Assembly (NCBI GenBank): GCA_036676985.1
Contig: JAKFBU010000041.1
Coordinates: forward strand, 96,001 to 160,000
Direction: 5' to 3'
Source: Candidatus Sericytochromatia bacterium
GTDB lineage: Bacteria > Cyanobacteriota > Sericytochromatia > S15B-MN24 > UBA4093
DNA length: 64,000 nt
Position numbers and translations under genes: made by a program. This document shows positions 2,378 through 63,318 of this stretch, in pieces (position 1 is the stretch's first letter; the number at the start of each line of letters is the position of its first letter). Under the pieces are notes generated by a model, which worked only from the letters and a program-made list of their open reading frames with translations, searched no databases and was not told the origin of the DNA.

Positions 2378-4549
2378 CTAGGCGAAGCGCATGCCGCCAG
2401 GCCCGAACTGCAAGCCCACCCGGGCGAACTGGTCCGCGGCATGGGGCACCAAGCCCGTATAACGGAAACTACCGACCACCCGACCCCGGTCGTCGAGGCC
2501 CTCCTGGTCGTAGGCGAACAGGTCCTGCATCACGATGACGTCCCCCTCCATGCCGGAGACCTCGGAGATGCGGACGATCTTTCGCGAACCGTCCTTGAGG
2601 CGGCTGATCTGGACGATCACCTGGATCGCCGAGGCGATCTGCTCACGGATGGCACGGCTCGGCAGCTCGACGCCGCTCATGAGGACCATGGTCTCCAGGC
2701 GGGACAGGGCGTCGCGCGGCGTGTTGGCGTGGCCGGTGGCCAGGCTGCCGTCGTGGCCCGTGTTCATGGCCTGCAGCATGTCGAGGGCCTCGCCCCCGCG
2801 CACCTCACCCACGATGATCCGGTCGGGACGCATACGCAGGCTGTTGCGCACCAGGTCGCGGATGGTGATGGCGCCCGAGCCCTCCAGGTTGGGGGGCCGA
2901 CTCTCCAGCGAGATGACGTGCTCCTGGTGGAGCTTCAGCTCGGCGGCGTCCTCGATGGTCACGATGCGCTCGTCCGCGGGGATGAAGCCCGACAGCACGT
3001 TCAAGAGCGTGGTCTTACCGGACCCGGTGCCGCCCGAGATGAAGACGTTCAGCTTCGCGAGGATCGAGCAGCGCAGGAAGTGCGCCATGTCCTGGTTCAG
3101 GCTCCCGTACTTCACCAGGTCGTCGATGCCGAGCCGGTAGTTGGGGAACTTTCGGATGGTCACCGTCGAGCCCGTGAGCGCCAAGGGCGGCACGATGACG
3201 TTGACGCGGCTGCCGTCCGGCAATCGGGCGTCGCACATGGGCGAGCTCTCGTCCACGCGGCGGCCGATGGGCGCCACGATGCGGTCGATGATGACGCGGA
3301 GCTGCTTCTCGTCGGTGAAGCCGTCCGGCACCCGCGTCAGCTTGCCGCTGCGCTCCACGTAGATCGTCTTGGGACCGTTGACCATGACCTCGGTGACGGC
3401 CGGATCGCCCAGGTACCGCTCCAGGGGGCCGAAGCCCACGGCCTCGTCGGCAATCGCGTTGATGAAGGCGACCCGCTCCTGGCGGCCCTTGAGGGGGACC
3501 TCCTCCATCTGCTCGAGGATCTCGGCGATGACCTCCAGCACCTTGGAACGGATCTCGCCCTTGCGCGCGGGGTCGGCCAGGTACTCCAGGGACAGGTTGA
3601 AGCGCTTGAGGGCCTCCACCAGCTCCTTGTGGACCTCGCGCTTGAAGTCGTCCAACTCGGCGTCCTCGGGCACGCCCTGGTGCGGGACGACGGCCGTGAC
3701 CTCGGTCTCGGTCGCCGCCGGAACCGGAGCGGCGGGAGTCGAGGCGCCCTGTAGGGGAGCCTGCGGGGTCGCGGGGGCGGTCGCCCTTGCGAGCACGCCC
3801 TGGGCGGCGGTGAGCAGGTTGCCCGCGGGCAGGGCCAGGGCCTTGGCGCCCAGTTGCAAGATGCCCGCCGAGACTGGGTGGTTGGGCTGCTTGAGGACGA
3901 TGGGCTCGCCGCGGTTGAGCGAGCTCACGACCGCGCCGCTCGAGGGGATCTGCCCGATGATGGGGCGCTCCAGGTGCTCCTCCAGGTCGTCGGCCGTGAT
4001 CTCGCCGACCGAGCCTGCGCGGTTCATGACCACCTGGATCTTCTCCAGGGGGAAGCGCAGGGCGCGGGCCTGCTCGATGGCGGCCTTGGAGGCGTTGAGG
4101 GTCGTGATGTCGGGCGGCACCACCATGAGCACCACCGAGGCCATGTCGAAGAGCGCCACCATGGCCTCGTGGCCGAGGCTCGGGAAGGTCGTGTCGACGA
4201 TGAGGAGCTCGAACTGCTTGGCCAGATCCCGGGCCATGGCGGCCACGTGGTGGGCCCGCGGGTCCAGGAGGTCCGTGAGCGGCGGGGCGGGCAAGAGCGA
4301 GACGCCCGAGGGATGCGGGGTGAGCACGTCGTCCAGGGACTTGGAGCCCCGGATCACGTCCGCCCAAGAGCCCGGCGCGGGCTCGAGGTCCAGGTACGAG
4401 GCCTGGGATCCGCCGCCCATCCAGTCCAGGTCCCACAAGAGGGTGGGGCGCTTGGTGCGCTTGGCGATCGCCACGGCCAGGTTGCCGGCCGTCACCGACC
4501 GTCCCAGGCCTCCCTTGGCGCCAAAGACCAGAATCAGGCGGCTAGGCAT
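2378..4549 (-). CDS. cpaF: Fused CpaE/TadZ (MinD/ParA-like) - CpaF/TadA pilus assembly ATPase
   Basis: N-terminal GAKGGLGRS deviant Walker A and MinD-like motifs; Ala/Pro linker; C-terminal CpaF motifs [41 protein letters not shown]. Confidence 0.92.
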
Positions 4550-6608: not shown

Positions 6609-6993
6609 GGCTCGCCTCCTCCCTCGATATCCAGACCGTCGTCTTGCGTTCTTTTCCGGCCACCACGACCCTGAGTTGCGCGTCGCCCTGCTCGTAGAGC
6701 AGAAGGGCCAAGGGGACCTTTTCGAGATCCTGGTTGAGGACGTCGTCCGCGACGGCCTCCTGCCACCCGCGCTTCGGCAGCTCGCGGCGGTAGAAGGCCA
6801 CGACCTCCTTCAAGCTCGCTTGCTGGGTCGCGATCGCCTCGGTCCCATTGCCGCGATTAGTGGCGGGACGCGGCTTGGCGCCAGGATACAGCGGTATCTT
6901 ACCCGCCGCAAGGTCTGCCGTCACACCGGCGAGCGACTTGCCGGGCGCCAGAACGAGCACCAGCGCGAGCCCCAGTCCCAACCACCGGTTCAT
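6589..6993 (-). CDS. Hypothetical secreted protein of the tad operon
   Basis: Signal peptide; IPLYPGA...VVAFYRRELPKRGW motif; overlaps both neighbouring genes. Confidence 0.7.
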   Translation of the reverse strand: MNRWLGLGLALVLVLAPGKSLAGVTADLAAGKIPLYPGAKPRPATNRGNGTEAIATQQASLKEVVAFYRRELPKRGWQEAVADDVLNQDLEKVPLALLLYEQGDAQLRVVVAGKERKTTVWISREEASHGKSTR

Positions 6994-7799
6994 GGCGTCT
7001 TTCCCGACAGCGTGTTGCGGATCCAGGGGTTGAGCTCCGAGAGTCCGAACCCTGCTCCGTGCACGGGCAGCTCGCTCGGCATGTAGCCCTCGGCACGCAC
7101 GCCCACCTTGTCCCAGAGCTTGGTGGACTTGCCCGTCACGAGCTTGGAGCCCTCCTCGGCGCCCTTGCCCAGGCCGTCCATCCAGGGACCGCGAGACGTG
7201 ACACGCTGGCCGTGCATGACAAAGCCGATGCCGAACTTGCCCGTGGGGTCCTTGGCCACGTAGGCGCGGCCCATGACGCCGACCGGAATGACCTTGGTCA
7301 GCTGCTGGCGGGGCACGGCCGGCTCGTACCGCCAGGACGGACCCGAAACGTCCACCTTGCGCGACTTGCCCAGGACCTTGCGGGCATATTCGACGCGGGT
7401 GGCGGTGTTGCCCGCCTCGCGGATGATGCCGAGGCCCATGACCTTCTCGTCGGCGGCACCGTCCATGGCGGCGATGGCCGCCTCGCGCGCGGCGAAGCGC
7501 GCCGCGACGACGGCATTCTGGCTCTCGTAGATGGCAAAGCCGATGAACGCCAGGGCGAGCAGGAGGAAGACGAGCAGGGGAATGAGCAGCCCCGCCTCGA
7601 CCATGGCCTGGCCGCGCTGTCTCTTGGCATTTCCCCCCACACGAAAAGCACGCGTCAGCAGGGCGTTTCCGTCACCCCGGCGAAGGCCGGGGGCCAGGGC
7701 ATGCGCCCCGAGTGCCAACCCTGGATCCCGGCTGTCGACGGGATGACGGGCGACGCACGCAACAACGGCACGCCACACGGCGCTAATGCTCCGAGACAA
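6990..7799 (-). CDS. TadE-family pseudopilin (alternative GTG start at 7640)
   Basis: Class III signal KRQRG|QAMVEAGLLIPLLVFLLL with E+5, then AARFAAREAA; TTG at 7799 has GGAGG at 7805-7809. Confidence 0.8.
   Translation of the reverse strand: MSRSISAVWRAVVACVARHPVDSRDPGLALGAHALAPGLRRGDGNALLTRAFRVGGNAKRQRGQAMVEAGLLIPLLVFLLLALAFIGFAIYESQNAVVAARFAAREAAIAAMDGAADEKVMGLGIIREAGNTATRVEYARKVLGKSRKVDVSGPSWRYEPAVPRQQLTKVIPVGVMGRAYVAKDPTGKFGIGFVMHGQRVTSRGPWMDGLGKGAEEGSKLVTGKSTKLWDKVGVRAEGYMPSELPVHGAGFGLSELNPWIRNTLSGKTP
7669..7749. repeat. 81-bp palindromic REP-like element
   Basis: Arms CCGTCACCCCGGCGAAGGCCGGGGGCCAGGG (7669-7699) and CCCTGGATCCCGGCTGTCGACGGGATGACGG (7719-7749) are imperfect inverted repeats, each with an internal hairpin; resembles the widespread GTCATYCCCGCGnAnGCGGGRATCCA repeat type. 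Confidence 0.75.
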
Positions 7800-9625: not shown

Positions 9626-10165
9626 CTAACCTCCTGAGAAGCTCAAGAGGTGCGGGTAGAGCATCGCGCAGAGGGTGCCGGCGGCGATCGCCACGCCATA
9701 CGGAAAAGGCGGCAGCGCGCTCTTGGAGAGCATCGCCTCGGGCTTGGCCCCGGGGGTGAACATGGCCAGGAGGAAGTAGTAGAGGTTGCGCAGCACGGAC
9801 CACAGGGCGCCGTAGCGCAGGGCGAACAGGAGCGCGATGATGCCGCCGGCGAGGGCCACGTCGATCATGGCCACGATGATGAGTGGATAGCCGAGCCAGG
9901 TGCCGATGGCCACCATGAGCTTGAGGTCGCCCGCCCCCATTTTGGCGAAGAGGTACAGGAGCAGGAAGACGACCGCCGCGAGGCCGCCGCCCGCGAGGCT
10001 GCTCAGCAGGCCCGGCACGCCGCCGAAGACGACGCTGAGCAGCAGGCCCAGCCCCATCGCGGGGAAGGTGAGCCAGTTATAGATCCGGTGCCACCGCATG
10101 TCGGTATAGACGGCGATCATGAGCACCGGAAGCAGGGCCCATTGCCAGACGGGGATCGAACTCAT
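9626..10165 (-). CDS. cpaA: Prepilin peptidase CpaA/TadV (A24)
   Basis: YTDMRWHRIYNWL, MGAGDLKL, FPYGVAIAAG motifs. Confidence 0.92.
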   Translation of the reverse strand: MSSIPVWQWALLPVLMIAVYTDMRWHRIYNWLTFPAMGLGLLLSVVFGGVPGLLSSLAGGGLAAVVFLLLYLFAKMGAGDLKLMVAIGTWLGYPLIIVAMIDVALAGGIIALLFALRYGALWSVLRNLYYFLLAMFTPGAKPEAMLSKSALPPFPYGVAIAAGTLCAMLYPHLLSFSGG

Positions 10166-10199
10166 GTGCAGGTACCAACCCTAGAAATGAAGACAAGAA

Positions 10200-10258
10200 G
10201 GCCCTCGCCTGCGATACCATACCCCGCTGGGGAGGCGGTATCACGCTAGGCGAGGGCC
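10200..10258 (-). terminator. Long hairpin between flp and cpaA (attenuator or pilin mRNA stabiliser)
   Basis: GGCCCTCGCCT-GCG-ATACC ... GGTAT-CACGC-TAGGCGAGGGCC inverted repeat. Confidence 0.6.
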
Positions 10259-10272
10259 TGAGAGCGTTGTGG

Positions 10273-10452
10273 TTAGATGCCCTTGCTCAGCGCATCGACC
10301 TTGTCGGCGAGCTTCTTGACCATGCCGTTGACCTTCTCACCGAGGATCTTGTAGGTACCGGCGCAAACGAGAGCCACGACGGCGATGATCAGGCCGTACT
10401 CGACCATCGACTGACCTTCCTCTTCGCGGACAATCTTCTTCAAAAGTTCCAT
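10273..10452 (-). CDS. flp: Major Flp pilin (59 aa)
   Basis: MELLKKIVREEEG|QSMVEYGLIIAVVALV Flp motif; GGAGG SD. Confidence 0.93.
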   Translation of the reverse strand: MELLKKIVREEEGQSMVEYGLIIAVVALVCAGTYKILGEKVNGMVKKLADKVDALSKGI

Positions 10453-10499
10453 CGTGGTAATCCTCCATCTGAACCGTTTGGGAAACTCCTCACACAAGG

Positions 10500-10552
10500 G
10501 TTATAGGGAGGTCCCCAGCGGATCCGGTAAGATTTACTTGAAGCTTACTTTA
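10500..10552 (-). promoter_or_regulatory. Putative flp promoter with an upstream 11-bp-spaced direct repeat
   Basis: Minus-strand TATAAC at 10505-10500; TTTACTT (10533-39) and CTTACTT (10544-50) in an AT-rich gap. Confidence 0.45.
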
Positions 10553-10579
10553 AAACGGGGCTAAATCGATCGCGAAGGC

Positions 10580-10942
10580 TCAGCGGGCGCGCATGAGGGC
10601 CTTGGAGTGGTGGCCGAAGGACAGGCCGAAGGCGCCGCCCAGCAGCTTGATGGACACAATCAGGCCCAGGGCGAGGGATCCGGCGATGAGGGCGTACTCG
10701 AGGGTGCTCTGGCCATCCTCGTTCACCAAGATCTCGCGCAGGAGGGCCGACGTTTCACCCCCCCTCCCCCCCCTGCTTCGCAAGGGGGGCACAGGGCGCC
10801 CTGCTTCGCAGGGATTGAAAGCGGGATCAGCAACGCTCGTGTCGCCCACAATAAACAACCCCCTGCGAAGCAGGGGGAAGTCCTCGTGCCCCCCTTGCGA
10901 AGCAGGGGGGGAAGGGGGGGTAGAACGAGTCACCACCCCCAT
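10580..10942 (-). CDS. Second Flp pilin with a repeat-expanded leader
   Basis: C-terminal LLREILVNEDG|QSTLEYALIAGSLALGLIV; ATG lies 2 nt after the upstream stop codon. Confidence 0.8.
   Translation of the reverse strand: MGVVTRSTPPSPPASQGGHEDFPLLRRGLFIVGDTSVADPAFNPCEAGRPVPPLRSRGGRGGETSALLREILVNEDGQSTLEYALIAGSLALGLIVSIKLLGGAFGLSFGHHSKALMRAR
10751..10927. repeat. MITE/REP-like palindromic element, copy A
   Basis: Terminal inverted repeats ACCCCCCCT(T/C)CCCCCCCTGCTTCGCAAGGGGGGCAC; inner inverted repeat CCCTGCTTCGCAGGG/CCCTGCGAAGCAGGG. Confidence 0.9.
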
Positions 10943-10944
10943 GG

Positions 10945-11442
10945 TTATTGCCCCGTCGACACGATCGGCACGTACAGCGTCAGGCTCGTGGGATAGTTGG
11001 CGTCGTCCAGGCCCATGAGCGTCACGGTCGCCGTGACGCTCCGCTTGGCCTTCAGGGCGTCCACCACCGACTGATCGACGATGGGCAGCACCGCCTTGCC
11101 CGTGCCCGCCACGAACTCCAGATCCTGGGTATTCGTCAATGACTCGCGCGGGTACTTCTTGAGGTACGTGGGCTCGACCCGCAGGCTCATGGCCATGCTC
11201 TTGTTGCCGATCCCCGAGTCCCCGTCGTACTTGATGTCCGCGCGGCCAAAGGTCGCGCCGAGCGACCCGTTCTGGCCCTGCACCGTCACCGTGGGATTTG
11301 TAAACGTTGCCTTGGAGCCCTCGATGGTCACCTGCACCGTCGCCGGCTCGATGTTCGTCACGCTGAGCTGCGCCGGCACGTTGGTGTACCAGCCGCAGCC
11401 ACTGAGGGCCGCCAACACCGCCAGGATCCCGATCCGTTTCAC
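10945..11442 (-). CDS. Lipoprotein of unknown function (possible pilotin or accessory protein)
   Basis: MKRIGILAVLAALSG|C lipobox; AGGAGG SD; beta-rich sequence. Confidence 0.8.
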   Translation of the reverse strand: MKRIGILAVLAALSGCGWYTNVPAQLSVTNIEPATVQVTIEGSKATFTNPTVTVQGQNGSLGATFGRADIKYDGDSGIGNKSMAMSLRVEPTYLKKYPRESLTNTQDLEFVAGTGKAVLPIVDQSVVDALKAKRSVTATVTLMGLDDANYPTSLTLYVPIVSTGQ

Positions 11443-11472
11443 GATCCGCCTCCTAGGTTAGGTCGCCGAATG

Positions 11473-12558
11473 CTAGCTCGAGTACGAGCCGCTGCCGTGG
11501 AAGGCTCCGCGCATCATCCGCTGGAGCTCGTTGGGGTTCTCCGAGTACGACAACGCGTCGTCCAGGGAGATCTGGTCCTCCTGGTACAGGTTGAAGAGCG
11601 CCATGTTCATGCTCTGCATGCCGTCCATCTGGCCCTGCTCGATGACGTGCCGCAGGCCGTCCAGGTCGTTCTTGAAGACCAGGTCCTGCACCGTCGGAGT
11701 CGAGACCAGCACCTCGACCGCCGCGCGGCGGCCCCGGCCGTCGCCCTTGGGGATCAAGCGCTGCGAGATGGCCCCACGCAGGATGGCGCCCAGCTGGTGC
11801 CGGATGTTGTCCTGCTCGTGCGGCGGGAAGGTCGAGATGACGCGCGAGACCGTGCCCACGCTGTCCGTGGTGTGCATGGTGCTCATGACCAAGTGGCCCG
11901 TCTCCGCCGCCTTGACCGCCGCGAGGATGGTCTCCTGGTCACGCATCTCACCCACCAGGATGACGTCCGGATCCTGACGCAGCGCGTACTTGATGGCGTT
12001 GGGGTAGGTCAGGGTGTCCGCGCCCAGCTCGCGCTGGGTGATGACCGACTTCTTGCTGGTGTAGACGAACTCGATGGGGTCCTCGATGGTGAGGATATGG
12101 ACGTCCTTGGTCGTGTTGATGAACTCGACCATGGCCGCGAGCGTCGTCGACTTGCCCGAGCCCGTGGGGCCCGTGACGAGCACGAGGCCCTGGCGCTCGA
12201 GGGCGAGCTTCTTGATGACCGGCGGCAGGTCCATCTGGTCCACCGCGGGCGGCTTGAGGGGGATGACGCGGAAGGCCGCGCCGATGTTGCCCTGCTCGAA
12301 GTAGACGTTCACGCGGAAGCGCGCGAGCCCGTCGATGGTCAAGCTGATGTCGATCTCGCGGTTCTGCTCGAACAGCTGGCGCTGCTCGGTGTTCATCAAG
12401 CTGTAGAGCGCCTGGCGCGTGTCGGCGGGGGTCAGCGTCTTGTACTCGGTCGGGACGATGCGACCGTCGATGCGCAGCACCGGCGAGGTGCCCACCTTGA
12501 CGTGGATGTCCGACGCGCGCTTCTGAACCGCGGTGCGAAGAAAGTCGATGATATTCAT
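11473..12558 (-). CDS. pilT: PilT/PilU-family type IV pilus retraction ATPase
   Basis: ASDIHVKVG, RFRVNVY, GPTGSGKSTTLAAM, TIEDPIEF, ALRQDPDVILVGEMRD, AAETGHLVMSTMHT, GMQSMN; true start MNIIDFL at 12558. Confidence 0.93.
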   Translation of the reverse strand: MNIIDFLRTAVQKRASDIHVKVGTSPVLRIDGRIVPTEYKTLTPADTRQALYSLMNTEQRQLFEQNREIDISLTIDGLARFRVNVYFEQGNIGAAFRVIPLKPPAVDQMDLPPVIKKLALERQGLVLVTGPTGSGKSTTLAAMVEFINTTKDVHILTIEDPIEFVYTSKKSVITQRELGADTLTYPNAIKYALRQDPDVILVGEMRDQETILAAVKAAETGHLVMSTMHTTDSVGTVSRVISTFPPHEQDNIRHQLGAILRGAISQRLIPKGDGRGRRAAVEVLVSTPTVQDLVFKNDLDGLRHVIEQGQMDGMQSMNMALFNLYQEDQISLDDALSYSENPNELQRMMRGAFHGSGSYSS

Positions 12559-12578
12559 GCGCGGATGATCGTCCTGTC

Positions 12579-13163
12579 TTAAGCGTTGGTCGCGGGGGCG
12601 GCCTGCGCCAGCTGCGCGAGCGGGAAGCCGACAGCGCGGTTGAGGATGCGCTGGATGTCGAACAGGTTGCGGATCGCGTCGGGGGCGGTGGTCTCCGAGA
12701 GCCACGTCTCGACGATCTGGCCCTTGTCGTCCAGGAAGGTAACGGTCATCGCGAGGTTGCTCGGCAGGAACTTGCCGGGCTGCACATTCTTGATCTCGTC
12801 CATGGCGGGCGGATCGTACTTGAGGTTGACCTCGCCGACCGTGTGGATCTTCTTCTTGCGGAAGGTGTGCGACTTGGGGAACAGGTTGATGAAGATGAAG
12901 TACGCCGAGGTCACGAGGATGACCTCGCAGGCGTAGAAGCTGCCGCCCTGCTCGCCGGGCTTGGAGGTCGTCGCCTCGAACTGGTAGTAGCAGCCCAGCA
13001 CGCGATCGGCCGGGTGGATCGTGTCGTACAGGATCTGGAGCAGGATCTGGCCCACGCCGGGGACTCCGCTCGCCTTCTTCATCAACTCCTGCATGCGCGG
13101 GTGATTGAAGGCATTGGCCTGGGGAGGCTGCTGGGGCTGCGACGACACGGTTTCTGCGCTCAC
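12579..13163 (-). CDS. Hypothetical cytoplasmic protein, first gene of the pilT unit
   Basis: GTG start with GGAGG SD; host-like codon bias; 20 nt upstream of pilT. Confidence 0.75.
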   Translation of the reverse strand: MSAETVSSQPQQPPQANAFNHPRMQELMKKASGVPGVGQILLQILYDTIHPADRVLGCYYQFEATTSKPGEQGGSFYACEVILVTSAYFIFINLFPKSHTFRKKKIHTVGEVNLKYDPPAMDEIKNVQPGKFLPSNLAMTVTFLDDKGQIVETWLSETTAPDAIRNLFDIQRILNRAVGFPLAQLAQAAPATNA

Positions 13164-13305
13164 GTTACCCTCCGCGCGGCAGGATGCGGCTCCCGCCTCA
13201 ACTCGAGTTTGCTTGGACGGTGCTATTGTACCCCGGCGCTTGAGCCCCTAACGATCGTCAGGTGCTGGCGCGGCGGGGGGCTCTGGCGCATGGTCCGACG
13301 GCTCT

Positions 13306-13454
13306 ACCCCCCCATCCCCCCCTGCTTCGCAAGGGGGGCATAGCGAGTCCTGCTGCGCAGGATTGAAAGGCAAGAGCGCGCTATCAATCCGGCCCGGCTC
13401 TGCCGGGTCCAGTCCCTAAGCCCCCCTTGCGAAGCAGGGGGGGAAGGGGGGGGT
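13306..13454. repeat. MITE/REP-like palindromic element, copy B
   Basis: Same CCCCCCCTGCTTCGCAAGGGGGGC / GCCCCCCTTGCGAAGCAGGGGGGGAAGGGGGGG ends as copy A. Confidence 0.9.
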
Positions 13455-13467
13455 CGAAAAGCAGCAA

Positions 13468-14565
13468 CTACTTCGTGAGCACGACCTCGTCGAACATCTT
13501 GCCCTCCTTGTCGATGGCCTTGAGCGTCAGGCGGTTGCCGTCCATCTCGGCGGCCATGAAGTGGTAGGCGTCCTTGTAGATCGAGGGCTTGTTCTTGTCC
13601 TGGAACTTCTGACGGCCCGGGCGCAGCCAGGCTCCGCCGCCGCCCGTGATGAGGTAGCGCGTGCCCGCGATGGGGTTCAAGAAGCGCTCGTAGTTGTGCT
13701 CGTGCCCGTTGACGTAGAGATCCACCCCGTACTTCTGGAACAGGGGCTGTACCCGGCTGCGCAGGAAGGCCTTGCCCCCGTCCGCGCCGTTGGAGTAGAA
13801 GGGATGGTGGCCGTAGACGACCTTCCAGGTGGCATTCGAGGAGGCGAGGGCCCGCTCGAGCCAGGCGACCTGGGGGGTGCCGGCCTTCATGAAGTCCCGG
13901 TCGGTGGTGTCGATGGCGAAGAACTCGGCCTGACCCCAGCGGAAGGAATAGTAGCGCTCGGTGCCGCTGGCCTTGGCGGGCAGGTCGAAGGCCCGCAGGT
14001 ACGCGGCCCCCTTCTCGGCCTTCACGTCATGGTTGCCGAAGACCGGGTAGACGGGCGCGTTGGCGCTGATGGGCGCGAACGGCTTGAAGAACCGCCCCGG
14101 ATAGAGCCGCTCCTCGCCGTCGTCGTAGACCACGTCCCCCGTGTGCAGGACGAACTCGGGCTGGTAGGCCGCGAGCCGCTCGGCAATCGCCTTCTGATTG
14201 GCGTTGCCGCTGCCGGTGTCCCCGACGATGGCGAAGCGCGCCTTGCCGGAGCCCGCGGGCGGCGTGCGGAACGTGCCCTCGGCCACGACGCGATCGCCCG
14301 ACAGCAGCTGGTAGGGAACGGCCGTCCCGGCCGGCAGGCCCGTGAGCTGGACGTTGTGGTGCGTCGTCGCCGCGAGCTCCTTGACCGTCCGGCTGTTGGC
14401 GTAGCGCACCTGGCCGATGCCGGCCTCGTCCGTGCGCCACATGAGGATCGCCGACGAGGTCGTCACGTTCTGGACGTACGGCTTCACGGTCAGCGTCTCG
14501 GCCAGGGCGGGAGACGCAAGGGCGATCGCGAGCACGGCCGCGACGGAGTACGAAAGACGGGTCAT
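13468..14565 (-). CDS. Secreted metallophosphoesterase (purple acid phosphatase-like, FN3-like N domain)
   Basis: GDTG, HTGDVVY, GNHD, GHHP, GHEHNYER motifs; signal peptide. Confidence 0.9.
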   Translation of the reverse strand: MTRLSYSVAAVLAIALASPALAETLTVKPYVQNVTTSSAILMWRTDEAGIGQVRYANSRTVKELAATTHHNVQLTGLPAGTAVPYQLLSGDRVVAEGTFRTPPAGSGKARFAIVGDTGSGNANQKAIAERLAAYQPEFVLHTGDVVYDDGEERLYPGRFFKPFAPISANAPVYPVFGNHDVKAEKGAAYLRAFDLPAKASGTERYYSFRWGQAEFFAIDTTDRDFMKAGTPQVAWLERALASSNATWKVVYGHHPFYSNGADGGKAFLRSRVQPLFQKYGVDLYVNGHEHNYERFLNPIAGTRYLITGGGGAWLRPGRQKFQDKNKPSIYKDAYHFMAAEMDGNRLTLKAIDKEGKMFDEVVLTK

Positions 14566-14643
14566 CACTACCTCCTGGGGACGGGACCTACCAACCCGCA
14601 CAGCTTACCGCCAACCTCGGCGCCTGTCACCCCTCATGACGAA

Positions 14644-14668
14644 GGCCCCGCCTCAAAGAGACGGGGCC
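14644..14668. terminator. Hairpin downstream of serS
   Basis: GGCCCCG-CCTCAAAGAGA-CGGGGCC. Confidence 0.45.
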
Positions 14669-14740
14669 CCCAGGGAGCGCCGGCGTCCTCGCCGGCATGG
14701 GCTCATGCCGGCGAGGACGCCGGCGCTCCCAGATAGTCCG

Positions 14741-16039
14741 CTAAGACCGGAGCGCGCCCTCGCGCTGCGGCTCGGCCTTGAGGACCGCGACACCGCGCAT
14801 GTAGGGCCGCAGGGCCTCGGGCACCACCACCGAGCCGTCGGCCTGCTGGTAGTTCTCGAGGATGGCCGCCACCGTCCGGCCCACGGCCACGCCCGAACCG
14901 TTGAGCGTGTGCGGGTTCATGAGCTGCTTGTCCCGGCGGAAGCGGAGGCCGCCGCGCCGCGCCTGGAAGTCGGTGCAGTTCGAGCAGCTCGAGATCTCGC
15001 GGTACTTGCCCTGGGCGGGCATCCAGACCTCGAGGTCGTAGGTCTTGGCCGAGTTGAAGCCGACGTCCGCCGAGCAGAGCAGGATCTTGCGGTAGGGCAG
15101 GCCCAGGCGCTGCAGCACGGCCTCGGCGTTGGCCGTCATCTTCTCCAGCTCGTCGAAGGAGGTCTCGGGCGACACCACCTTCACCAGCTCGACCTTGTCG
15201 AACTGGTGGACGCGGATCAGGCCCTTGGTGTCGCGGCCGGCGGCCCCCGCCTCCGAGCGGAAGCAAGGCGTGCCCGCCGTGAGGTGCATGGGCAGCATGT
15301 CCTCGTCGATGATCTCGTCCCGGTACAGGTTGGTGAGGGGGACTTCCGCCGTCGGGATCAGGTAGTACTTGGTGCCCTCGAGCTTGAAGAGCTGATCCGC
15401 GAACTTGGGCAGGTTGCCGTTGGCGAGCAGCGTCTCCTCGTTGGCGACGTAGGGGGGCTGCACCTCGGTGTAGCCGTGCTCGCCCGTGTGCAGGTCCAGC
15501 ATGAAGTTGATGAGCGCCCGCTCGAGCTGGGCGCCAGGGCCGCGCATGAGCGTGAAGCGGGTGCCCGCGAGCTTGACCGCGCGCTCGAAGTCGATGATGC
15601 CGAGGGCCTCGCCCAGCTCCCAGTGAGCCTTGGGCTCGAAGCCGAACGCGGGCACGTCGCCCCAGCGCACGACCTCGACGTTGTCGTCCTCGCTCTCGCC
15701 GTCCGGCACCGACTCGTCCAGCAGGTTGGGAATCTGGTACATGAGCTCGGTGCGCCGGGCCTCGATGTCAGACATCTGGGCCTCGAGGGCCTTGATCCGC
15801 TCGCCGTTGGCCTTGACCGACGCGATGACCTCGGAGGCGTCCTGGCCCGACTTCTTGAGGGCGGCCACCTGCTCGCTCGCCTGGTTGCGCTTGGCGCGCA
15901 GGTCGTCGAGCTCGGTCTGGGTCTCGCGGAACTGCTGGTCGAGCTGCTGCAACGCGCTCAGGTCGAAGGCCATGCGCCGCCGCTGGAGGCTCTTCTCGAC
16001 GCGCTCGGGCTCTTGCCGGATCAGCTTGATGTCTAACAC
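14741..16039 (-). CDS. serS: Serine--tRNA ligase
   Basis: GTG start VLDIKLIR; [56 protein letters not shown]. Confidence 0.97.
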
Positions 16040-25678: not shown

Positions 25679-25828
25679 ACCCCCCCTTCCCCCCCTGCCT
25701 TCGGCAAGGGGGGCACAGGGACTGGACCCGGCGGAGCCGGGCCTGATTGGTTGTGGCTCACTCACGTTCAAACCTGCGCAGCAGGACTCCCTATGCCCCC
25801 CTTGCGAAGCAGGGGGGGAAGGGGGGGT
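25679..25828. repeat. MITE/REP-like palindromic element, copy C (inverted relative to copy B)
   Basis: Reverse complement shares the ends and the internal GAGTCCTGCTGCGCAGG and GGCCCGGCTCyGCCGGGTCCAGTCCCT with copy B. Confidence 0.9.
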
Positions 25829-62533: not shown

Positions 62534-62833
62534 GTGATGAAGACCGAGCGCTGGAGACTGAAGGTGGCGGCGAGCCGCTCCATCTGGACCATGCTCTTCG
62601 TGGCCCTGTTGACGAGCCCCTTCGGGGGCTACCTGTACATCGGGCACTTCAAGCGCAGTGGGTGGTTCCTGCTGGTCTTCGCCGTCGCCATGGCCACCGT
62701 GGGCCTGAGCATCGACTACCTGGGACTACCCATGTGGGCGGCCGATCTGACGGTGGCGGTGGGCTTCGCGGGAGCCCTGGCGGATATGGCGCTCATTATT
62801 CTGAAAGCGCGGCGCGAGCTGGTTTTGGAATAA
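62534..62833 (+). CDS. Small hypothetical membrane protein
   Basis: Three hydrophobic segments; PFGGYLYIG (TM2-like) motif. Confidence 0.6.
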   Translation: MMKTERWRLKVAASRSIWTMLFVALLTSPFGGYLYIGHFKRSGWFLLVFAVAMATVGLSIDYLGLPMWAADLTVAVGFAGALADMALIILKARRELVLE

Positions 62834-62981
62834 GGAGGACCCCCCGGCCCCCCTCTAGAGGGGGGTGGGGATCATGGGTGGGTGGACAGCAAGGTGGCTC
62901 CAACCGATCAGGGGTGAAGCACCCCCTCCCAATGGCTTCCCCCCTTCTTGAGGGGGGGGGCTAGGGGGGTCCTCCTTATTC
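62828..62981. repeat. Palindromic C/G-tract element, divergent relative of copies A-C
   Basis: Perfect 18-bp terminal inverted repeat GAATAAGGAGGACCCCCC / GGGGGGTCCTCCTTATTC with inner CCCCCCT..AGGGGGG hairpins. Confidence 0.8.
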
Positions 62982-62982
62982 T

Positions 62983-63318
62983 TTAACCCTGCAAATGCTC
63001 CGTCGCGAACCAGAACAGCTGGCCGCGCAGCTTCTCGTCGATCTCGCGGTACTCGAGGGCCACTCGGAACAAACCCTCGACCGGCTGCACCCGGATGACC
63101 CGGGCCGTGAAGAGTTGCTCGCCCTCTTCGCCCATGTTCACGGAGACCCGCACCTGGCCGCCCTCGGGCAGCGACTCGCGCGAGAGCACCAACGCCCCGC
63201 CGCCCGACACGTTCTCGAACTGGCCCATGACCGGGGGCGCATACGCCCCCGCCGACTCGACCTCCAGCGTGCAGGGCAAGTGCGACTCACCCCGCGCAAA
63301 GACACGCCGCTCGTCCAT
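62983..63318 (-). CDS. PilZ-domain protein
   Basis: ERRVFAR (RxxxR) and NVSGGG (D/NxSxxG) c-di-GMP-binding motifs. Confidence 0.88.
   Translation of the reverse strand: MDERRVFARGESHLPCTLEVESAGAYAPPVMGQFENVSGGGALVLSRESLPEGGQVRVSVNMGEEGEQLFTARVIRVQPVEGLFRVALEYREIDEKLRGQLFWFATEHLQG

Follow-up and report, generated by a model that had tools for sequence, protein, structure and literature searches.

A composite palindromic repeat of 165 nt lies in frame, and without a stop codon, within the open reading frame of a Flp-like minor prepilin encoded in the window, the 64,000-nt stretch of Candidatus Sericytochromatia DNA analyzed here (GC content 67.5%). The best overall explanation, which we consider reasonably probable, is that the repeat fell into a leader that is translated and then cleaved from the pilin, and that it was tolerated there. 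The in-frame, stop-free state by itself is within chance. What goes beyond chance is the palindrome together with the repeat-like peptides found in the leaders of orthologous pilins.

The repeat-bearing pilin gene and its tad cluster

A Pfam scan revealed a tad cluster on the minus strand of the window, consisting of genes for a pilT-like ATPase, a lipoprotein-like protein, the repeat-bearing pilin, a second Flp pilin, an A24 peptidase, three TadE-like proteins, RcpC, a secretin, a CpaE/F-like ATPase, and a T2SSF protein. The repeat-bearing ORF (10580..10942, minus strand) encodes 120 aa and is the last gene after the pilT-like and lipoprotein-like genes. A preliminary reading made from the sequence alone (hereafter the sequence-only reading) had placed a palindromic element in the frame of this pilin without a stop, and the 120-aa ORF, open from 10942 to 10580, bears this out. 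The protein divides into a 77-aa leader and a 43-aa mature part. Its match to the Pfam family Flp_Fap (E 0.0014, 18.8 bits) falls short of the curated cut-off of 32.2 bits, and PF04964 is present in four of its eight close orthologs. The Flp features of the protein are a G|xxxxE-Y motif followed by a hydrophobic helix, and its gene lies in a tad cluster with an A24 peptidase.

Read from its 5' end, the gene opens with a start segment (10922..10942, minus strand), comprising the ATG and codons 2-7, which is host sequence 5' of the insert and resembles the N-terminus of the ortholog P0005. The repeat follows (10757..10921, codons 8-62), and then the retained host leader (10712..10756, minus strand, codons 63-77), a predicted helix that ends at the cleavage residue G-1, and the mature pilin (10580..10711, minus strand), which carries the Glu5-Tyr6 motif and the hydrophobic helix. 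Codon adaptation is 0.18 in the start segment, 0.26 in the repeat portion, 0.62 in the retained host leader, and 0.81 in the mature pilin (0.68-0.88 in 14 reference genes), where GC3 is 0.95. The start segment is probably a former spacer that was taken over by an upstream start.

The gene immediately upstream (10945..11442, minus strand) is labeled lipoprotein-like on the basis of its N-terminus, and no Pfam family reaches its cut-off in it. Its stop codon ends 23 nt before the repeat; the TAA ends at 10945 and the pilin ATG stands at 10942, which agrees with the two-nucleotide spacing previously read from the sequence. The pilT-like ATPase gene (11473-12558) is located directly upstream in the cluster. 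On the other side, the second Flp pilin gene (10273..10452, minus strand) encodes a 13-aa leader and has a strong SD, as judged by Pfam and SD energies, and its product is probably the major pilin. An A24 prepilin peptidase is also present: its gene, of the CpaA/TadV type (9626..10165, minus strand; PF01478, E 4e-16), lies two genes downstream of the repeat-bearing pilin gene. Between the second flp gene and the peptidase gene, a nested hairpin at 10199-10259 overlaps a terminator-like site. Elsewhere in the cluster, the T2SSE ATPase (2378-4549) is fused to a ParA/MinD-like domain in a single ORF of 723 aa.

Boundaries, fold, and copies of the repeat

The repeat is composed of two outer arms and two inner hairpins. 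A 177-nt stretch that includes it (10751-10927) folds at -141.9 kcal/mol (z -13.2), a stability equaled by none of 200 shuffled sequences. The sequence-only reading had regarded all 177 nt as the insert and proposed that their deletion restores a leader of normal length. When in-frame deletions were scored against the empty ortholog P0005, however, the best 12 all corresponded to 165 nt, with a global score of 51 and a gapless fit of 22 against 22 aa, compared with a score of 33 when 177 nt were removed. We therefore rejected the 177-nt boundary, whose outer 4-bp pairing is host sequence, in favor of the 165-nt core (10757-10921, 55 codons); removal of this core leaves a leader of 22 residues.

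Two intergenic copies have the lengths reported in that reading: one of 149 nt (13305..13453) lies 14 nt after a stop codon, and the other, of 150 nt (25679..25828), lies 22 nt past the end of wecB, counted from its stop codon. All three copies in the 64 kb sit 14-23 nt past a stop codon, and the arms of the pilin copy are near-identical to those of the others. Length is divisible by three in two of the three copies, and open frames number four of six in the pilin copy and 8 of 18 across all three.

The repeat hairpins at 10757-10921 contain GCGAAGC or its complement. GCGAAGC forms an unusually stable single-stranded DNA mini-hairpin, and these hairpins may possibly hint at a single-strand (HUH-type) mobilizer. 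The inverted-repeat regions listed for the window number 20; six of them, which lie in or overlap genes (11017, 32944, 37491, 49178, 53061, and 53251), were dismissed on visual inspection as coding hairpins due to chance, and nine intergenic single hairpins were not counted as dispersed repeats. A second-family palindrome of similar build, with a C-run and a G-run, lies between convergent genes at 62821-62988 and overlaps both of their stop codons. In addition, a perfect 27-bp inverted repeat is present as one copy in the window just after serS (14673-14730).

A series of leaders in orthologous pilins

A search with the 56 residues that follow the repeat returned all eight candidates as close proteins, and a profile search returned 102 of the 7999 proteins scored, the clear orthologs being P0001-P0017. 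The named orthologs originate from MAGs labeled Stenomitos sp. and Pantanalinema sp. by NCBI, GC-rich genomes that we take to be Sericytochromatia. In the outgroup, the leader has 14 aa in seven of the eight proteins with a called leader and 18 aa in the remaining one, and the called leaders of the close orthologs measure 32, 31, 47, 22, 29, and 35 aa; these starts are gene-caller output, and in shuffled DNA a start codon precedes any stop in 62% of cases. Two of the eight close proteins (P0003 and P0009) are called from downstream starts, that of P0009 being a Met inside the mature part. The 77-aa leader of the window pilin is longer than all of 85 generic Flp leaders, which have a median of 17 aa and a maximum of 59 aa.

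The empty site that the sequence-only reading had proposed to look for was found, at the protein level, in P0005, which has no insert and whose 22-aa leader fits gaplessly after removal of the 165 nt. Its N-terminus is matched by the start-segment peptide, and none of 3000 null peptides did as well; of 15 N-terminal pairs, only 2 show significant similarity. In P0002, the left arm of the repeat occurs at the same junction and in the same frame as in the window (score 50, reached by none of 1500 random segments), and the frame is kept despite a different net insert length. Similarly, P0003 carries the right arm at the same junction and in the same frame (scores 61-66, again reached by none of 1500 random segments). 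The inner hairpin appears in P0007 in another frame, with a score of 36 against a null maximum of 33. P0004 shares with P0007 the same seven-residue motif at a weaker score (p 0.009, uncorrected for four targets), and the comparison of the P0006 leader with the repeat gave p 0.06; on these values, both were left out of the clear repeat peptides. Across the six close orthologs, the leader peptide is clearly repeat-derived in three, weakly so in one, unclear in one, and not repeat-derived in one. Judged from the protein sequences, remnants of the repeat seem to occupy the matching spot in the leaders of these relatives, and this series supports the in-frame repeat better than a lone copy would.

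In the same six orthologs, 38-43 of the 43 mature residues are identical to the window pilin, compared with 5-7 of the last 14 leader residues. This conservation of the mature part against a variable leader end makes the gene look functional. Mature identity and host-like codon use (0.81) also argue that it is not a pseudogene, a doubt raised in the sequence-only reading. A tree of 15 orthologs over 53 columns, in which none of 12 branches is well supported, fits either one eroding insertion or several.

Start codon and alternative explanations

Sequence comparisons make translation from ATG 10942 likely. The SD energy is -5.0 kcal/mol for this ATG, -1.8 kcal/mol for the TTG at -6, and -3.3 kcal/mol for the GTG at -5. 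The sequence-only reading had pointed to a TTG/GTG start as a threat to its interpretation; such a start is disfavored, rather than dismissed, by these weaker SD energies and by the residues upstream of it, which are hydrophobic at -11 in six of seven proteins and at -10 and -7 in all seven, as well as by Trp at -6 in two orthologs. Position -5 is Val in one of seven. Met occurs at -14 in none of the seven close proteins, and the window has an ACG there (10753-10751), the position at which the outgroup starts; the start thus seems to have moved upstream in this lineage. Support for the ATG from the frame test is weak (P 0.04-0.10 for 4 of 6). A codon-score gene caller picks GTG 10726, not ATG 10942, and scores codons 2-62 as non-coding.

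That last result would suit a repeat located in an untranslated spacer, with the pilin starting downstream at the ACG (-14), the CTG (-10), or the TTG/GTG (-6/-5) and the frame of the ATG open by accident. We judge this arrangement unlikely, although it agrees with the position of all three copies just past stop codons, with Leu at -10 in all seven proteins, and with the ease of an accidental open frame, given a one-in-three chance for the length and four of six frames open. Similarly, REPs at the 5' ends of ORFs are described, in sections of PMC3733652, as often being misannotated UTRs. The right arm of the repeat also supplies a strong SD (-12.4) ahead of the ACG aligned with the outgroup Met, but in the predicted fold this SD is entirely base-paired (unpaired 0.00), and the residue at -14 varies among orthologs and is never Met. 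Moreover, ACG and CTG are very weak start codons, the insert-free P0005 has a matching N-terminus, and P0002 stays in frame although its net insert length differs, all of which favors a translated leader.

Two further alternatives concern an effect of the repeat on expression. The repeat could have acquired a role as an attenuator-like or mRNA-stability element, keeping the minor pilin at a low level, with translation blocking termination at the inner hairpin. Indeed, an inner hairpin (10859..10877, minus strand), together with the U-rich tail that comes after it, resembles a terminator on the sense strand, bases right after the AUG pair with the first C-run of the repeat in partial folds, and the relic in P0002 and that in P0007 correspond to one hairpin each. 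Terminator-like sites are, however, not enriched (4 in 5 kb versus 2.5 in shuffled sequences), and the type of insert varies freely among orthologs, one of which has none, which renders co-option improbable. No sigma-70 promoter was matched in 9800-14800. Tuning of pilin output by the repeat, as suggested in the sequence-only reading, is plausible at most. Alternatively, a recent insertion may have silenced a gene whose mature part is too young to have decayed. The near-identity of the arms to other copies and the extreme stability of the stem, which at -142 kcal/mol starts 21 nt after the A of the AUG and could suppress translation, are in keeping with silencing; we nonetheless find it quite improbable in view of same-junction arm remnants in orthologs that differ at 7-9 of 14 positions at the leader end and at only 1-2 of 43 in the mature part.

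Classification of the repeat

The element had been described as MITE-like, and it does have terminal inverted repeats, a non-coding core, and a length below about 200 nt (a definition given in part of PMC3184786), with three dispersed copies in 64 kb. Yet a flanking direct repeat of 2-12 nt is absent at two of the three copies, including the pilin copy, the copy at 13305-13453 having a 2-nt match, and scanning of 59 window proteins (16 + 43) identified no RAYT or other transposase. MITE status is not supported given that the pilin copy lacks a flanking direct repeat, and the earlier label was abandoned on this ground and on the lack of a transposase in the window. The architecture is that of a REPIN, in which two inverted REP-like hairpins and a spacer form one long hairpin, and the in-frame insertion relative to the empty ortholog P0005 is RPE-like at the protein level. 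The repeat is therefore REPIN/RPE-like rather than a proven MITE, and it would act like a coding palindrome of the RPE type, its peptide probably being discarded.

Database searches placed the repeat in no named family. Among NCBIfam families, including the named RPE models, none matched the repeat peptide at E 0.1, and no Rfam family matched the repeat, tRNA being the only Rfam match. The repeat peptide, a short, low-complexity query for which a blank is weak evidence, had no match at E 0.001 among 1.84 billion representatives, and a search restricted to 66-210 aa returned pilin orthologs only (6 of 60 candidates), a blank that is equally weak. A scan of GTDB with the 22-nt arm gave one match, in an Acetatifactor MAG (L001 10001-10022), which we took as unrelated since it is a lone hairpin with no second arm nearby. 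Searches yielded one weak partial match among plasmids and no matches among phages.

A second repeat in the frame open into a TadE-like gene

A different palindrome, a CGTC-type REP dimer of 81 nt (7669..7749, 27 codons), is open in frame into the third TadE-like gene (6990..7799, minus strand), whose TadE domain spans residues 63-105 and whose start is uncertain. The dimer is more stable than all of 200 shuffled sequences (z -5.7), occurs once in the window, and lies 33 nt past a stop codon by hand count. By eye, it shows a CGTC tag, an 8-bp stem, a 4-nt loop, a CCA tail, and a head-to-head arrangement, features described in part of PMC3733652. Among the in-frame starts, TTG 7799 ranks best (SD -10.3) and would produce a 63-aa leader running through the repeat; the other starts are GTG 7778, GTG 7640, which is almost without an SD, and ATG 7630 (SD -7.8). 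As ATG 7630 is one base out of frame, a short, frameshifted leader is a live rival for this gene. The TadE-like protein had no matches among plasmids.

The window contains five dispersed-type palindromes. Two of them occupy frames leading into class III genes, which represent 5 of about 60 window genes, and the other three are intergenic. Because the first palindrome prompted the search, the fair chance figure is that of the second alone, 4/59 or about 0.07 by hand calculation. As support for a leader pattern, this second repeat in a class III leader frame is suggestive only.

Proposed sequence of events

In the explanation we favor, a non-autonomous REPIN/RPE-like repeat would have inserted 23 nt past the stop codon of the upstream gene, a spot that is coding because the minor Flp pilin begins at the ATG two bases after that stop. 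An older Met at -14 would have been lost in this lineage. Since the 165-nt insert keeps the frame, ribosomes would read 55 extra disordered, hydrophilic residues, while the last 14 leader residues and G-1 would be left intact. The prepilin would then enter the membrane with its leader remaining in the cytoplasm, and the A24 peptidase would cut this leader off, so that the pilin would be unchanged. Frame-breaking inserts would be purged, and in-frame inserts would persist and subsequently erode. In this account, the anatomy of the sequence, the empty-type ortholog, the conserved mature part, and the repeat-like peptides of other leaders are observed, whereas translation from ATG 10942, cleavage, neutrality, and the order of events are inferred.

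The leader contains no membrane-like segment (hydropathy 0.72 versus 2.06). In a structure model built with nine sequences (mean pLDDT 56), residues 1-60 are unstructured at low confidence, and two helices follow, one at 62-74 and that of the pilin at 80-119. Class III leaders are described, in parts of PMC10191384, PMC6497953, and PMC12075869, as variable in length, cytoplasmic, and cut after Gly; our literature search found no cleavage test of a leader as long as 77 aa. The simplest account of the position is that the repeat sits at its usual place after a stop codon and that the leader is tolerant. The best reading is accordingly that the repeat is tolerated, not targeted, and we do not claim that it is useful.

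Relation to known systems and implications

Palindromic repeats of about 100-170 nt, namely RPEs and intragenic GTAG/CGTC REPs, are described in sections of PMC3733652 as occurring both between genes and in frame within them, including at N-termini; RPE-1-bearing N-termini are reported there as expressed, and REPs as usually located just after stop codons. In-frame repeats are also treated in part of PMC3184786. Like the Rickettsia RPEs and intragenic REPs, the pilin repeat is palindromic and found both in intergenic regions and in frame in a gene, but an RPE peptide is kept in the protein, whereas the pilin repeat peptide would be cut off by the peptidase. It shares with REPINs the inverted hairpins around a spacer that fold as one hairpin (PMC3116915, in part); REPINs are described as extragenic, while the pilin repeat is in the frame of a gene, with no RAYT among the 59 window proteins. 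Bacterial MITEs such as Nezha, RU/ERIC, and RUP likewise have terminal inverted repeats, a length below 200 nt, no transposase gene, a stable RNA stem, and ORF fusions (according to parts of PMC2759123), but they have a target-site duplication, and the pilin copy has none. Within the same parts of PMC2759123, a predicted Sec signal peptide, that of YPO1552, is described as made up in part by RU-2; there the element provides the signal itself, whereas the pilin repeat would be a passenger, with an intact class III signal downstream of it. As in other Flp/Tad prepilins, the repeat-bearing pilin combines G|xxxxE and a short, all-helical mature part with a tad cluster and an A24 peptidase, but its leader, with 77 aa, 55 of which are repeat-derived, exceeds all 85 generic leaders compared.

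In-frame repeats are thus already known, and the present case is a neat variant rather than a new system. In the literature searched, mostly open-access and with the original RPE papers outside its scope, we found no prepilin leader described as carrying a repeat; pilin, Flp, and TadE genes are absent from the four supplementary files of PMC3733652. The view of the sequence-only reading that class III leaders would be a neutral safe harbor for repeats is supported in part by the single leader analyzed here. More tentatively, class III leaders could be a recurrent sink for palindromic selfish DNA. One Flp leader would have been repeatedly filled and eroded in different frames, a second repeat family would have entered a TadE-like leader, and the peptidase would edit the peptide out after translation, as a host-supplied counterpart of intein self-removal. 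We regard this broader idea as doubtful at present.

For annotation, these findings serve as a warning that such genes may be mis-started or missed, as in the two of eight close proteins called from downstream starts. If translation does run through the repeat, the leader would offer palindromic mobile DNA a route into coding sequence that costs the mature protein nothing. It would likewise provide a natural series, in which a near-invariant pilin is combined with called leaders ranging from 14 to 77 aa, for testing how indifferent prepilin peptidases are to the leader.
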